IMG/VR virus record: IMGVR_UViG_2850761752_000007
Length of the DNA stretch: 28,285 nt
Reading direction: 5' to 3' (one strand)
DNA from: a virus
Taxonomy: Duplodnaviria > Heunggongvirae > Uroviricota > Caudoviricetes
This document shows positions 18,001 to 22,538 of the stretch, one piece after another. Position numbers: made by a program. The first letter of the stretch is position 1, and each line of letters starts with the position of its first letter.

Positions 18001-21000
18001 GCCTTCAGGAAGGGATAATCGGGAAGCGCCTTCACTGATCGAAAGTTGATTTTCAAGAACCGTTCTGACAGCTTCGGCTTTGAACTCTTTAGAGTAACGT
18101 TGGTTTTTTCTGCTCATTATTAGCTCCTTCTGATGCCATTCTATTTCAGGAAGGAGTGTCCGTTAAACTCAGGCTACCTCAGCCTGAGGGCAGGTGTAAA
18201 ACAATAATCAAGCATGGGGTTCATATCCATAGCTCCATTTTTATTTTAAGGAAAGCAACTGCTCTACGGTCATGTTTTTAATTGCGCCCCGGTTTACAAG
18301 AGTCCAGCCCTGTTTTTCCAGATAAAACCGGAAAGTCTCCAGGGTACAGACCAGTGCGCCATCAGGAACGGTTTCGGTGAATTCGACATTGCCGAATTTG
18401 TCGAAGTGAACAACCAGAGTGCGACCATCACCCGGAATCATCTTGTCAGCAGGTGGGGTGTTATTCTGGCGCAGTTCGGCCTCCATGCGGTCGAACTCAG
18501 CAATGTAGGCTTCCTTGAATGTGGCGGCTTTTTTGCCCGTGAAGCCCATCACCAGGAAAACGAAGCCGTTTTTGGTGATTTGGTAGGCGTTATAAGAATT
18601 GCCGCGGTGTTCGAATTTAACCCGCGAAAAGTTGCTGGTTAAAAATAGTTCAGAACATTCGAAGGATTCTATTTTTTGAACAACATGGTGATGCTGCTTG
18701 CCAAAAAACTCAGCAATCGAAATAGAAGTAGTGACGGCGCGACCATTTTCGATGGTTACGTCAGGGTGAGAAAGGGTAGTAGCCATAATGACATCCTCAA
18801 GTGATAAGTTAATTAACTCACCAGCAGAGGTGCTAATCTCATGGGTGGTGAGACGCACAGGGTTAGCACTACCGGTCACTCGAGAACCCGGCCAGCCTTG
18901 CGGCTGCCCCGCACGCCTCACCATAATTTGAATGTGGCTGTGCATTACGCATAAAAAAACCGCTTCAGCGCGGTTATGCGCTCGAGTAACTTTCGGGGTG
19001 CTAATCCCGGCACCCGTTTTATGAGGTGCAGGTGCACTATAATTCCACCCGTTCTGGTTTTCAATAGCTACATTCAACATTTTCTCTTTCCTTTCATCAC
19101 CGAAGTGAATTTTGTGATGCGGTGCCTAGTGCCTCCAGGTGACGTTAACCAGTTAACAATTACAGTCGGCTTTCCCACCCAAACCAATAAGGACTAACAT
19201 GACTTTTAACTGTGCCGCGTGCGCTTAGCCGCATTCACCGCATCACAAAATTCACTTTAAAAAGGGCGGACATCAGCCAGCAATTAAACCGATGCCGCCA
19301 ACTGGTACTTCACACAGCAATGTCGTTATTTACAACCGGAAGCGCACTCCCACCATTTAAATTTCACAGACAAGACCGACTCTTTATGAATACCGGAAAT
19401 GCGCCTTCGTGTTGTGCCCGGTTTTATTTCACCACCTCCGGGCTTTGGTGGCCTCGGCTATGAGGTAGCCTGAGTTTAACGGACACTCCTTCCTGAAATA
19501 GAATGGCATCAGAAGGAGCTAATAATGAGCAGAAAAAACCAACGTTACTCTAAAGAGTTCAAAGCCGAAGCTGTCAGAACGGTTCTTGAAAATCAACTTT
19601 CGATCAGTGAAGGCGCTTCCCGATTATCCCTTCCTGAAGGCACTTTAGGACAATGGGTTACCGCCGCCAGAAAAGGGCTCGGTACTCCTGGTTCCCGCAC
19701 GGTGGCTGAACTGGAATCTGAAATTCTGCAACTGCGTAAGGCGTTAAATGAAGCTCGCCTTGAGCGAGATATATTAAAAAAAGCAACAGCGTATTTTGCA
19801 CAGGAGTCGCTGAAAAATACGCGTTAATCGAACAATGGCGACAACAATTTCCCATTGAAGCGATGTGTCAGGTATTTGGTGTATCCAGGAGCGGTTATTA
19901 CAACTGGGTACAGCATGAACCCTCAGACAGAAAACAAAGTGATGAGCGGCTAAAACTGGAGATTAAGGTGGCACATATCCGCACTCGCGAAACATATGGA
20001 ACCCGGCGGCTCCAGACGGAGCTGGCAGAGAATGGCATCATCGTTGGTCGTGACCGACTGGCACGTCTTCGTAAGGAGCTAAGGCTACGCTGTAAGCAGA
20101 AACGCAAGTTCAGAGCGACTACGAACCCGAACCACAATCTGCCAGTTGCGCCAAATCTGCTGAACCAGACGTTCGCTCCTACAGCACCAAATCAGGTCTG
20201 GGTGGCGGACCTGACGTATGTTGCCACACAGGAGGGATGGTTGTACCTCGCTGGCATCAAAGATGTTTATACGTGCGAAATTGTCGGCTACGCCATGGGA
20301 GAGCGCATGACAAAAGAGCTGACAGGTAAAGCCCTGTTTATGGCGCTCAGGAGCCAGCGCCCACCTGCCGGGCTAATCCACCACTCTGATCGAGGTTCAC
20401 AGTACTGCGCATACGATTACCGGGTCATACAGGAGCAGTCTGGTCTGAAAACATCAATGTCGCGTAAAGGTCACTGTTACGACAACGCTCCGATGGAAAG
20501 CTTCTGGGGAACGCTGAAAAATGAGAGCCTGAGCCACTATCGTTTTAATAACCGGGATGAAGCCATCTCAGTAATACGGGAATACATTGAGATTTTCTAC
20601 AATCGTCAGCGTCGTCACTCTCGTCTGGGGAATATCTCCCCGGCAGCCTTCAGGGAAAAATATCATCAGATGGCTGCTTAAAAAAAGAACAAATGGTAGT
20701 GTCCGCTATTGCCAGTACACCTCACTATACCTCTACAGCGAGAATATTGAATTAATCCAATAAATGGATTAGCTGGTATTTTTGGCAAGCCAGCGACGTG
20801 CGCCAGCTTCGGTTTTAAACGTTTTGCTTTTGGTATACGTCATGGCGGTGAATGTGCCGTCCTGATTGGGAAACACGCCACACACTAGGGATTCGTTGTT
20901 GCCAAGATCGATAGTATCCATGCTGACCTCATTTCCCCTTAACGCCGGGGTAGTGGAACTGTTTGCTGAGAACACCGTGCGGTGTCTTGATGAATGAAAC

Positions 21001-22538
21001 TTAGAATAACCTAAGACGTGGAGTCAAGATTTTATGTATAAAAACCTAAGTTTTTTTGATGTAAAAAACACAAGTGTTTGAAAGTTTGTGCTTTTTATTA
21101 CAGGGTGTGGAGAAAAAAGGGGATTATTTGTTTGCGCTTCTTTTGCGAGCTTTGAGTAGTTCTTCAAAAAGTTTGTTGAAATTTTCAACTCGAGCACGCA
21201 TCTCTGACAACAGGGCCTTTTGCTCTGACTCAGGCAGTGCGTCGAACAGTTGAAGTAACTCTTTTTGATCTTCTGTCAGAATGGCTGGCTGATTATCCGG
21301 GATCGGTTCGCCTGGTTGTTTATCTTCATCCCCAAAAAGAAGCCAAGTCGGTGAGCACTGAAGCGCTTGGCTCAGTGCGAATAATCTTTTCCCCGCCGGC
21401 TGTGTTTCATCTCTTTCCCATTGAGAAATTGTTACGTGAGCCACTTTGACCAGCTTACCTAATGCGGCCTGAGACAGTTTTAATTTTTTACGCCTATGTA
21501 AGAGGCGAGCACCGAAGGTTTCGTTTTTCATATTAGGGAATTCTAATCTTTCTTGACTTAGGTTTCTCTACGATCTAGTTTCCTTAGGAAAATCTAAGGA
21601 GCTCGATATGTTGAAAATTGATGCTATAGCGTTTTTTGGCAGCAAAACAAAGCTTGCCAATGCCGCAGGAGTTAGGCTGGCAAGCATTGCTGCATGGGGG
21701 GAACTGGTTCCTGAAGGCCGCGCGATGCGCCTGCAAGAGGCATCTGGCGGGGAACTTCAGTACGACCCCAAAGTTTATGACGAATATCGTAAGGCAAAAC
21801 GACCTGGGAAGGTGATTCATGAAAATCAGGCATGAGCACATCGAATCAGTGCTGTTAGCCCTGGCAGCCGAAAAAGGGCAGGCGTGGGTCGCTAACGCAA
21901 TTACTGAAGAATATCTGCGGCAGGGGGGCGGCGAATTGCCTCTGGTACCAGGCAAGGACTGGAACAATCAGCAGAATATCTATCACCGTTGGTTGAAAGG
22001 TGAAACGAAAGCGCAAAGGGAGAAAATTCAGAAACTGATCCCTGCGGTTCTGGCAATTCTTCCGCGTGAGCTGCGTCACCGACTCTGTATCTTCGATACC
22101 CTGGAACGCCGTGCATTACTGGCGGCGCAGGAAGCGTTGAGTACGGCAATTGATGCGCATGATGACGCAGTTCAGGCCGTTTACCGGAAAGCACATTTCA
22201 GCGGTGGTGGGTCGTCCGACGATTCTGTCGTTGTGCATTGATGTTTATGCCGAACCTCCTCTGGTTCTGTTGATTGGGGAATCACAGATTATATCCGGAG
22301 GAAGGTTCGGCACCTGAAGTGGCACACTGAATTTGGCCACCTGAACAGAGGTGATATGCTCACCTCAGAACAACACAGGTGCTCCAATGAAAAAAAGAAA
22401 TTTTAGCGCAGAGTTTAAACGCGAATCCGCTCAACTGGTTGTTGACCAGAAATACACGGTGGCAGATGCCGCCAAAGCTATGGATGTTGGCCTTTCCACA
22501 ATGACAAGATGGGTCAAACAACTGCGTGATGAGCGTCA

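Follow-up and report, generated by a model that had tools for sequence, protein, structure and literature searches.

The three TTAG-N6-CTAA palindromes found in the window, i.e. the whole stretch of 28,285 bp analysed here, very probably serve as operators in a lambdoid immunity switch of the Qin (DicA/DicC) type. The evidence consists of the sites themselves, their statistical excess, their positional conservation, their covariation with repressor type, the presence of intact genes and the homology to K-12. The module is an ordinary, already described DicA/DicC prophage switch, of which this copy, left isolated between insertion sequences, is unusually intact. The Qin/Rac-like immunity region proposed in the earlier note is recovered, with a DicA-like repressor, a Cro of the DicC/P22_Cro type, YdfA and a Rac-type YdaT all being found. 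That DicA controls both dicC and the dicB operon headed by ydfA is well established for Qin, so the note's prediction that one repressor governs both arms amounts to a rediscovery. The result has little significance beyond annotation, placing this copy in the published DicA/DicC framework; a tool-free reading of the sequence does appear to have correctly picked out real operators.

Abundance of the palindrome

Exact matches to TTAGNNNNNNCTAA occur three times in the window when both strands are considered, at 21001-21014, 21533-21546 and 21584-21597, just where they had been reported from inspection. By chance 0.34 ± 0.54 would be expected, and none of 100 shuffles contained three or more. When one mismatch is allowed the motif is not enriched window-wide (10 found against 7.4 expected), and only one of these hits, at 21558-21571, is supported by position and conservation. 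The earlier count of three therefore holds for exact sites, but weaker sites at 21558-21571 and 21036-21049 had been overlooked.

Conservation across homologous loci

Conservation in homologues, which the earlier note had put forward as a check on its prediction, was studied in 20 homologous loci of the TTAG class, comprising 123.7 kb and drawn from phages and several genera of enterobacteria. Their 62 exact matches all lie at one of four fixed positions relative to the repressor gene (-65/-66, -15/-16, +39 to +46 or +73 to +146), while only 2.2 matches are expected from composition. Alignment reveals that the half-sites and the -35 element are invariant and the spacers variable. By contrast, TTAG-N6-CTAA is absent from 11 loci having FKWE/YKWE-type recognition helices or otherwise divergent repressors, which carry other palindromes instead (ACTTA-N8-TAAGT, ATAAC-N4-GTTAT or TTAAG-N4-CTTAA). 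Even within the TTAG class the flanking base covaries with the repressor allele, SQAALG being associated with C-TTAG..CTAA-G and TQR with G-TTAG..CTAA-C. On the basis of this covariation between operator and recognition helix, two or more immunity flavours can be distinguished in the class, and a family-wide operator map with four fixed positions is a by-product of the comparison.

The repressor-Cro intergenic region

The candidate operators, promoter and genes of the right arm are as follows:

21124-21531, minus strand: DicA-like immunity repressor, 135 aa, with a P22 c2-like helix-turn-helix N-terminal domain and no peptidase domain
21533-21546: O3, OR3-like operator TTAGGGAATTCTAA, an exact match 2 bp from the repressor ATG
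21553-21581, plus strand: Cro/YdaT promoter (PR-like), TTGACT, 17 nt, TAGTTT, read directly from the sequence
21558-21571: O2, imperfect middle site TTAGGTTTCTCTAC, one mismatch, within the spacer of the Cro promoter
21584-21597: O1, Oc/OR1-like operator TTAGGAAAATCTAA, an exact match in the extended palindrome CCTTAG..CTAAGG
21608-21835, plus strand: Cro-like gene, DicC homologue, 75 aa (Pfam P22_Cro, E 3e-13)

The divergent genes are thus separated by two perfect sites and one with a single mismatch, with centres 25 and 26 bp apart. O1 lies just 3' of the Cro -10, covering the expected transcription start, and aligns with K-12 Oc; of the 20 loci, 17 carry a site at this position, -65/-66 relative to the repressor ATG. 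In an in vivo reporter assay, repression through K-12 Oc (TTGTTAGTCATAACTAACAA) needs DicA, and changing CTAA to CTCA inactivates the site. O2 is kept only in the allele group of the window (L001, L004, L008 and L009), and can be considered a true operator with low confidence.

The position of O3 points to a different role. Nineteen of the 20 loci have a site at -15/-16 from the repressor ATG, and in the window it includes a -10-like hexamer, TAGAAT, on the minus strand (21545 to 21540), 8 nt from that ATG. Its flanks, A-TTAG..CTAA-T, differ from those of O1 and of the left-arm operator, OL. Going by the operator names, O3 is presumably the counterpart of K-12 Oa; in the in vivo assay of Yun et al., binding by K-12 DicA was seen for Oc but not for Om or Oa (data not shown). 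As Oa is unbound despite its presumably perfect core, this implies that the core alone is insufficient, and O3 may be no repressor site at all. The overlap with the conserved TAGAAT, together with the unbound state of Oa, makes it more likely that O3 is an OR3-like site for shutting off the repressor gene than an operator of the Cro promoter, the role assigned to it in the earlier note; it is probably the preferred target of Cro.

The Cro promoter elements (TTGACT at 21553-21558, TAGTTT at 21576-21581) are present as previously described, and align base for base with K-12 dicCp, TTGACT-17-TATCTT. This layout matches the -10, -35 and +1 assigned to dicCp by Yun et al., and the TTGACT columns are invariant in a six-locus alignment. 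A generic promoter and terminator scan called two irrelevant sites only, and neither the Cro promoter nor that of the ydfA arm; promoters were accordingly assigned by homology to those of K-12. Both -10 elements (TAGTTT and, in the ydfA arm, TAAGTT) are poor matches to the consensus, and the Cro promoter is missed because TAGTTT fits TATAAT at only three of six positions. The Shine-Dalgarno sequence of cro, AAGGAG (21596-21601), shares bases with the flank of O1. The Cro-like protein is 75% identical to K-12 DicC, and its gene is intact in the window, while relatives L091, L094 and L095 carry a nonsense or frameshift mutation.

The repressor and its promoter

The repressor matches helix-turn-helix families only in Pfam (HTH_3, E 8e-14), and is 62% identical to K-12 DicA over 131 aa. 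Residues 2-69 match structures of the P22 c2 N-terminal domain (1adr, 2r1j and 3jxb, E 1e-21), and V33 and Q37 of the c2 DNA-binding domain are kept. A peptidase S24/LexA domain was not detected by Pfam in this protein of only 135 aa; DicA is likewise described in the literature as lacking RecA-stimulated self-cleavage. This implies that induction would need an antirepressor or spontaneous switching, rather than RecA cleavage. Past the repressor stop codon is a further element:

21062-21097, minus strand: hairpin with a trailing U-run (folding energy -9.6 kcal/mol, z -3.3)

This is a probable terminator between the repressor transcript and the ydfA-arm promoter, missed by the terminator scanner because its stem is AT-rich.

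Upstream of the repressor ATG, a TAnnnT hexamer at a distance of 4-9 nt, with no Shine-Dalgarno sequence, is found in 27 of the 28 distinct sequences examined. Every locus of the TTAG class has TAGNAT as this hexamer, 8-9 nt from the ATG; of the 11 loci in the other operator class, 10 show TAnnnT at a distance of 4-9 nt. Hence the repressor mRNA is, on the basis of sequence conservation, probably leaderless, with its -10 (TAGAAT) lying inside O3. Leaderless mRNA has not previously been described for DicA; if such transcripts are a feature of DicA-family repressors, this would explain why no 'obvious' dicA promoter exists in K-12.

The left arm

The left arm of the module, leading away from the repressor, contains the following:

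21036-21049: decayed second OL site, TTAGGTTTTTATAC when read on the minus strand, two mismatches, its centre 35 bp away from that of the main OL
21001-21014: OL operator TTAGAATAACCTAA, an exact match with the extended form CTTAG..CTAAG, lying between the two hexamers (-35 and -10) of the ydfA-arm promoter
20998-21027, minus strand: ydfA-arm promoter (PL/dicBp-like), TTGACT (21027 to 21022), 18 nt, TAAGTT (21003 to 20998)
20769-20921, minus strand: ydfA (DUF1391), 50 aa (Pfam DUF1391, E 2e-29, and alignment)
19461-20724, plus strand: IS600-like IS3-family element, 1,264 bp, inserted 44 bp past the ydfA stop
19264-19314, minus strand: weak DicF-like element (Rfam DicF, 28.6 bits, E 0.0044, full model length)

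OL is the positional homologue of the K-12 dicBp site (TTAGTCATGGCTAA), and a downstream site is present in all 20 loci. The promoter around it was aligned with those of K-12, L001 and L004, and is homologous to K-12 dicBp, TTGACC-17-TAATCT. Position 21000 is C in the window but T in every compared relative that aligns there, so that TAAATT becomes TAAGTT, a weaker ydfA-arm -10. At the second OL site most close relatives (L001, L004, L009, L010, L088, L089 and L091-L095) have TTAGGTTTTTCTAC, with one mismatch, whereas the A found in the window is common to L090. In other allele groups both OL sites are perfect, with a separation of 34-36 bp.

Only ydfA, the first gene of the arm, survives ahead of the insertion sequence. 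The latter, which we take to be IS600, has terminal repeats (TGAGGT...), two transposase ORFs and a 3 bp target duplication, CTA, at 19458-19460 and 20725-20727. Beyond it, and in the orientation of the ydfA arm, the DicF-like element keeps a terminator-like GGCGG...CCGCCC-TTTTT, but is cut off from the ydfA-arm promoter, and its score falls below the Rfam gathering cut-off of 48 bits. The ydfA/DicF-like arm of the earlier note therefore needs qualification, DicF being a sub-threshold match separated from ydfA by the 1,264 bp IS600. No DicB, YdfB, YdfC or YdfD could be found in the window by tblastn, and a search of it for Rem gave no homologue; YdfX and YdaT showed a weak similarity. The absence of dicF and dicB concerns the cargo, not the switch itself.

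The Rac-type ydaT segment

Next to cro, the right arm continues with a Rac-like segment:

21813-21828: YdaT-box TGATTCATGAAAATCA, spanning the ydaT start codon
21819-22241, plus strand: YdaT, CII-analogue transcription factor, 140 aa (Pfam YdaT_toxin)

YdaT is 96% identical to Rac YdaT. Its box is the single match in the window, against 0.07 expected, and has a core identical to that of the Rac box (ATGATTCATGAAAATCAA), which has been footprinted with DNase. YdaT was considered as the binder of the TTAG palindromes, and rejected since its own box differs (TGATT-N6-AATCA). A Rac-type switch was also rejected, the repressor matching RacR by BLASTP at E 2.9 and Cro giving no alignment with YdaS. 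The locus is thus a mosaic, its resemblance to Rac being confined to the ydaT segment.

Proposed mechanism

Binding and regulation in this copy are predicted, and so are the leaderless promoter and the respective roles of O1, O2 and O3. A repressor dimer would recognise TTAG-N6-CTAA through its P22 c2-like helix-turn-helix, and these sites are probably also bound by the Cro-like protein. Bound at O1, and perhaps also at O2, the repressor would block the Cro-YdaT operon at its promoter, TTGACT-17-TAGTTT; on the model of K-12, where DicA represses dicC and dicBp and activates dicA, it would from these sites also stimulate its own weak promoter. O3, overlapping the probable -10 of the leaderless repressor mRNA, would be filled by Cro first and by the repressor only at high concentration, turning the repressor gene off. 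In K-12, dicA is repressed 48- to 84-fold by DicC. Occupation of OL, between -35 and -10, would occlude the ydfA-arm promoter; K-12 DicA represses dicBp 22-fold. YdaT, as a CII analogue acting from its box at 21813-21828, would boost repressor synthesis. Induction is envisaged to occur via an antirepressor or spontaneous switching, for which DicC is needed in K-12.

Working switch or remnant

That the palindromes arose by chance in AT-rich promoter DNA, or are bound by some other protein, for instance YdaT or a regulator of the host, is very improbable. The intergenic DNA is indeed AT-rich and the one-mismatch motif is not enriched, but the three exact matches were not reproduced in any shuffle, the motif occurs at fixed positions throughout the 20 loci and covaries with the recognition helix of the repressor, and the YdaT box is different; the conservation data already refute this explanation. 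A further question is which protein uses which site. The sites, or at least 21533-21546, could be operators of the DicC-like Cro, with the repressor seeing only the extended CTTAG..CTAAG at 21584-21597 and 21001-21014. The failure of K-12 DicA to bind Oa or Om in vivo is consistent with this, as are the atypical flanks of O3, its overlap with the probable -10 of the repressor promoter, and ChIP-seq of K-12 DicC, in which the strongest peaks flank dicA and the motif is TT(A/C/T)G...C(G/A/T)AA. Conversely, the K-12 negative is 'data not shown' from one reporter assay, and in lambda-type switches both proteins bind all operators, with different orders of affinity. Such a restriction of the repressor seems rather doubtful, and would refine rather than replace the explanation of the palindromes as operators of a DicA/DicC switch.

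Whether that switch still works is a separate question. It is quite possible that the module is now a locked silencer, in which the repressor is always on, merely holding down the few remaining genes or excluding related phages, with neither an induction route nor meaningful lytic output left. Both arms are shortened, by IS600 44 bp past ydfA and by an IS3-family transposase, itself truncated by IS1, about 110 bp past ydaT, and homologues of rem, dicB, ydfB, ydfC and ydfD are missing from the window. The exact repressor protein is listed in 10,028 index blocks of public assemblies; very many assemblies of Shigella and E. coli keep it, while cro, ydaT, promoters and operators around it decay variously: genomes with the identical repressor have nonsense or frameshift mutations in cro, a frameshift in ydaT, or mutations of the Cro -10 or of OL. 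In the window, too, substitutions specific to its lineage are seen, one in the OL -10 and another, also present in L090, in the second OL site. Retention of an identical repressor while switch parts mutate suggests that selection acts on the repressor rather than the switch. Against this, all core parts are intact in the window, unlike in several relatives: cro, its promoter and Shine-Dalgarno sequence, YdaT, the YdaT-box and the perfect operators; and the equally cryptic K-12 Qin retains spontaneous DicA/DicC switching in about 1% of cells. Judged from this intactness, a working switch is plausible, and the copy, one of few with every switch part intact, offers a reasonable substrate for flip tests. 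The persistence of the repressor amid decaying surroundings may also mean that it is maintained for a host-level role, and ChIP-seq suggests host-gene regulation by DicA and DicC in K-12. Domestication, if true, could serve immunity against related phages or the regulation of host genes. The broader proposal, that the repressor gene is domesticated and that the whole DicA family uses leaderless repressor mRNA with its -10 in the proximal operator, is tentative and on balance unlikely.

Comparison with known systems

One resemblance is to immC of P22 (c2, Cro, OR/OL). The N-terminal DNA-binding domain of the repressor is homologous to that of c2, Cro belongs to the same Pfam family, and the P22 operator, TTAAG-N4-CTTAA, is likewise an inverted repeat starting with TTA in a 14 bp frame. 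However, the half-site here is TTAG rather than TTAAG, and c2 has 216 aa with a RecA-sensitive C-terminal domain, in contrast to the 135 aa and unrelated C-terminus of this repressor. Rac (racR, ydaS, ydaT and YdaT-box) shares the near-identical YdaT and the box core over the ydaT start, while its RacR and YdaS are unrelated to the repressor and Cro of the window, with no significant BLASTP alignment.

K-12 Qin (dicA, dicC, Oc/Om/Oa, dicBp) differs in its repressor allele, with flanks G-TTAG..CTAA-C rather than C-TTAG..CTAA-G, and in having a truncated YdfX in place of the full-length Rac-type YdaT. The window also lacks the ydfB, ydfC, dicB, ydfD and true dicF of Qin, its left arm leading instead through IS600 to an isrK/C4/Rha-Ash module. 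Nevertheless, gene order and orientation are the same (ydfA and the repressor leftwards, Cro rightwards), a 135 aa repressor without a peptidase domain is accompanied by a similar Cro (62% and 75% identity, respectively), the TTAG-N6-CTAA core is at the same three places, and both have the TTGACT -35 of the Cro promoter and a left promoter with an operator in its spacer. The PPompW prophages of E. coli O157:H7 (e.g. LC567836, annotated with dicA/dicC) keep ydfC, a bona fide DicF (76.7 bits), DicB and replication genes, which the window has lost or never had; by contrast, their repressor is 98% identical to that described here, and they share the same three operators, the imperfect middle site and the second OL site.

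Operators and genes of the immunity region

Matches to TTAGNNNNNNCTAA occur at three places in the 28,285 bp of the window (21001-21014, 21533-21546 and 21584-21597) and nowhere else, and dinucleotide-preserving shuffles contain a mean of 0.34 matches, with three reached in 0/100. This search bears out the three palindromes described in an earlier note, and the Cro promoter it proposed, TTGACT (21553-21558) followed after 17 nt by TAGTTT (21576-21581), can be seen in the sequence. The note's finding is genuine, and its logic correct in outline.

Features of the immunity region
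20769-20921, repressor's strand: ydfA (DUF1391, Pfam), downstream of the repressor
21062-21097: hairpin and U-run after the repressor gene, a probable terminator (-9.6 kcal/mol, z -3.3)
21124-21531, minus strand: DicA-like repressor, 135 aa, matching only helix-turn-helix families in Pfam
21558-21571: middle site TTAGGTTTCTCTAC, one mismatch, within the Cro promoter spacer
21608-21835, divergent from the repressor: Cro-like gene, 75 aa, P22_Cro family, 75% identity to DicC
21813-21828: YdaT-box TGATTCATGAAAATCA, spanning the ydaT start codon, sole match in the window
21819-22241, overlapped by the Cro-like gene: YdaT, 140 aa, 96% identity to Rac YdaT

With the middle site, a candidate operator kept across the window's allele group, OR would be tripartite, its sites having centre-to-centre spacings of 25 and 26 bp. 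A second OL site, 34-36 bp from the first, is present in many relatives; its counterpart in the window (21036-21049) has two mismatches owing to a substitution at 21039 (T), common only to L090, a genome with an identical repressor.

The repressor is 62% identical to K-12 DicA, and its residues 2-69 match the solved N-terminal domain of P22 c2 (E 1e-21); the recognition-helix residues V33 and Q37 are kept. Since the repressor and Cro-like protein resemble DicA and DicC and proved unrelated to RacR and YdaS when compared with them, while YdaT is Rac-like, the locus is, by sequence, Qin-type with a Rac-type ydaT segment. The YdaT-box core is identical to the footprinted box of Rac, through which YdaT turns on a reverse promoter serving the repressor (PMC11879457). 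As Rac homology starts exactly at this box and the ydaT start, the box looks like a mosaic joint between a Qin-like dicC segment and a Rac-like ydaT segment.

Conservation across homologous loci

The DicA-family loci compared here derive from E. coli genomes and from phage records, together with a set of one genome for each species. The repressor recognition helix (A/S)HV(T/S)(I/V)SQWE is found in 20 loci, from E. coli, E. albertii, E. ruysiae, Citrobacter, Pantoea, Erwinia, Enterobacter, Buttiauxella, Serratia rubidaea and Rosenbergiella and from the phages PPompW, PhiR42_1 and BUCT708. Over 123.7 kb these contain 62 exact copies of TTAG-N6-CTAA, where composition predicts 2.2. All 62 fall into four positional classes, two ahead of the repressor ATG (around -66 and -16) and two past its stop (+39 to +46 and +73 to +146); the operators are thus conserved in homologues, a point on which the earlier note had staked its prediction. 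In an alignment of six loci, neither the half-sites TTAG and CTAA nor the -35 TTGACT varies, while the spacers do.

The motif is found in 0/11 further loci, which have FKWE- or YKWE-type helices or otherwise divergent repressors; in the same places these carry ACTTA-N8-TAAGT or ATAAC-N4-GTTAT and, in one, the P22-type TTAAG-N4-CTTAA. Among the TTAG loci, the base next to the core varies together with the repressor allele: SQAALG-type repressors, the group to which the window belongs, go with C-TTAG..CTAA-G, and TQR-type repressors with G-TTAG..CTAA-C. Conservation and covariation of this kind are what true operators should show if the adjacent repressor reads them.

The Symbiopectobacterium purcellii locus (L029) combines an SHVSISQWE helix with a TQQELS helix 2, and TTAAG-N4-CTTAA replaces TTAG-N6-CTAA at -16; it may be intermediate between the P22 and DicA specificities.

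A putative leaderless repressor promoter

TAGAAT (21540-21545, minus strand) lies within the repressor-proximal site, 8 nt from the repressor ATG, upstream of which there is no Shine-Dalgarno sequence. We infer a PRM-like promoter giving a leaderless repressor mRNA, its putative -10 embedded in the proximal operator, on which account that site (21533-21546) would act like lambda OR3. Of 28 distinct upstream sequences examined (L001-L029, the compared loci, plus the window), 27 have a TAnnnT hexamer 4-9 nt before the repressor ATG, in both operator classes, and the Shine-Dalgarno sequence is likewise absent from loci with this hexamer, which together suggests leaderless repressor mRNAs. The spacer of the proximal site also varies less than the spacers of the other site classes. 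The model fits the reports that K-12 has no 'obvious' dicA promoter and that DicA bound neither Oa nor Om of Qin in vivo (PMC3441716).

Decay of the surroundings and state of the immunity region

Features flanking the immunity region
1233-1452, minus strand: IS009 RNA
2192-2371, minus strand: CssrB, a Shigella sRNA (228.9 bits)
18241-19080 and 18841-19042, minus strand: C4 antisense RNA (78.6 bits), isrK (68.5 bits) and a weak c4-a1b1 target match
19264-19314, minus (ydfA-arm) strand, beyond the insertion element: DicF-like element, sub-threshold (28.6 bits, cut-off 48; E 0.0044)
19461-20724: complete IS600-like element, 1,264 bp, 44 bp past the ydfA stop, with a 3-bp target duplication (CTA)
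24469-24776, plus strand: cluster of four tRNA genes

The element at 19461-20724, which we take to be IS600, is a simple insertion oriented against the ydfA-arm transcript. The DicF-like element keeps its terminator (GGCGG...CCGCCC-TTTTT) and is divergent in its 5' part; phage PPompW, with a 98%-identical repressor, has a genuine DicF. None of dicB, ydfB, ydfC, ydfD and rem is found in the window. Beyond the DicF-like element lies an isrK/C4/Rha-Ash module, in which the three RNA matches sit inside the 5' part of a Rha/Ash-domain ORF; this group belongs to the left arm, which the repressor controls, and is reminiscent of an antirepressor module of the P1 immI kind. To the right (22351-24132), an IS3-family transposase pair starts about 110 bp past ydaT and is interrupted by IS1 (InsA/InsB ORFs, 23435-24132), so that the replication genes following ydaT in relatives are missing. 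The tRNA cluster, CssrB and IS009 RNA would fit a prophage remnant of Shigella type, rich in IS elements.

An index of public assemblies lists the exact repressor protein in 10,028 of its blocks, and the surroundings of the gene were compared in eight such genomes (L088-L095). There, cro has a stop at Q51 in L091 and L095 and a frameshift in L094, ydaT is frameshifted in L092 and L093, the Cro -10 TAGTTT has become TGGTTT in L088 and L089, and CTAA of OL is CTAG in L091; these lesions, all around an unchanged repressor, are independent. In the window all core elements are intact, with the sole exception of a window-specific T to C change at 21000, which weakens the ydfA-arm -10 (TAAATT to TAAGTT) and extends the operator palindrome. 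Whether this copy is a bistable switch or a locked silencer only is about evenly balanced.

Comparison with Qin and P22

Direct reading of the K-12 sequence reveals the TTAG-N6-CTAA core at three places, which align with the three in the window.

TTAG-N6-CTAA sites of K-12 Qin
Oc, TTGTTAGTCATAACTAACAA: directly after the dicC -10
TTAGCATTAGCTAA: adjoining the dicA start codon, presumably Oa
TTAGTCATGGCTAA: in dicBp, upstream of ydfA, between -35 TTGACC and -10 TAATCT

Oc is experimentally supported as a DicA operator (Yun et al. 2012, PMC3441716): one change within its CTAA abolishes DicA-dependent repression in vivo, and DicA bound there blocks dicC and activates dicA (PMC3441716). DicA represses dicBp 22-fold, and spontaneous switching needs DicC (PMC10448788), whose strongest ChIP-seq peaks flank dicA on both sides, with the palindromic motif TT(A/C/T)G...C(G/A/T)AA; dicA was repressed 48- to 84-fold in that study (PMC11430063). 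Owing to these results, control of both arms by the repressor, as the earlier note predicted, is established biology for the homologous module, through DicA on dicC and dicBp. As related phage records annotate the module dicA/dicC, the element is of a known kind and, in essence, itself already known. The likeness extends to P22, whose operator consensus ATTTAAGATATCTTAAAT (PMC5175364) has its 14-bp frame in common with TTAG-N6-CTAA.
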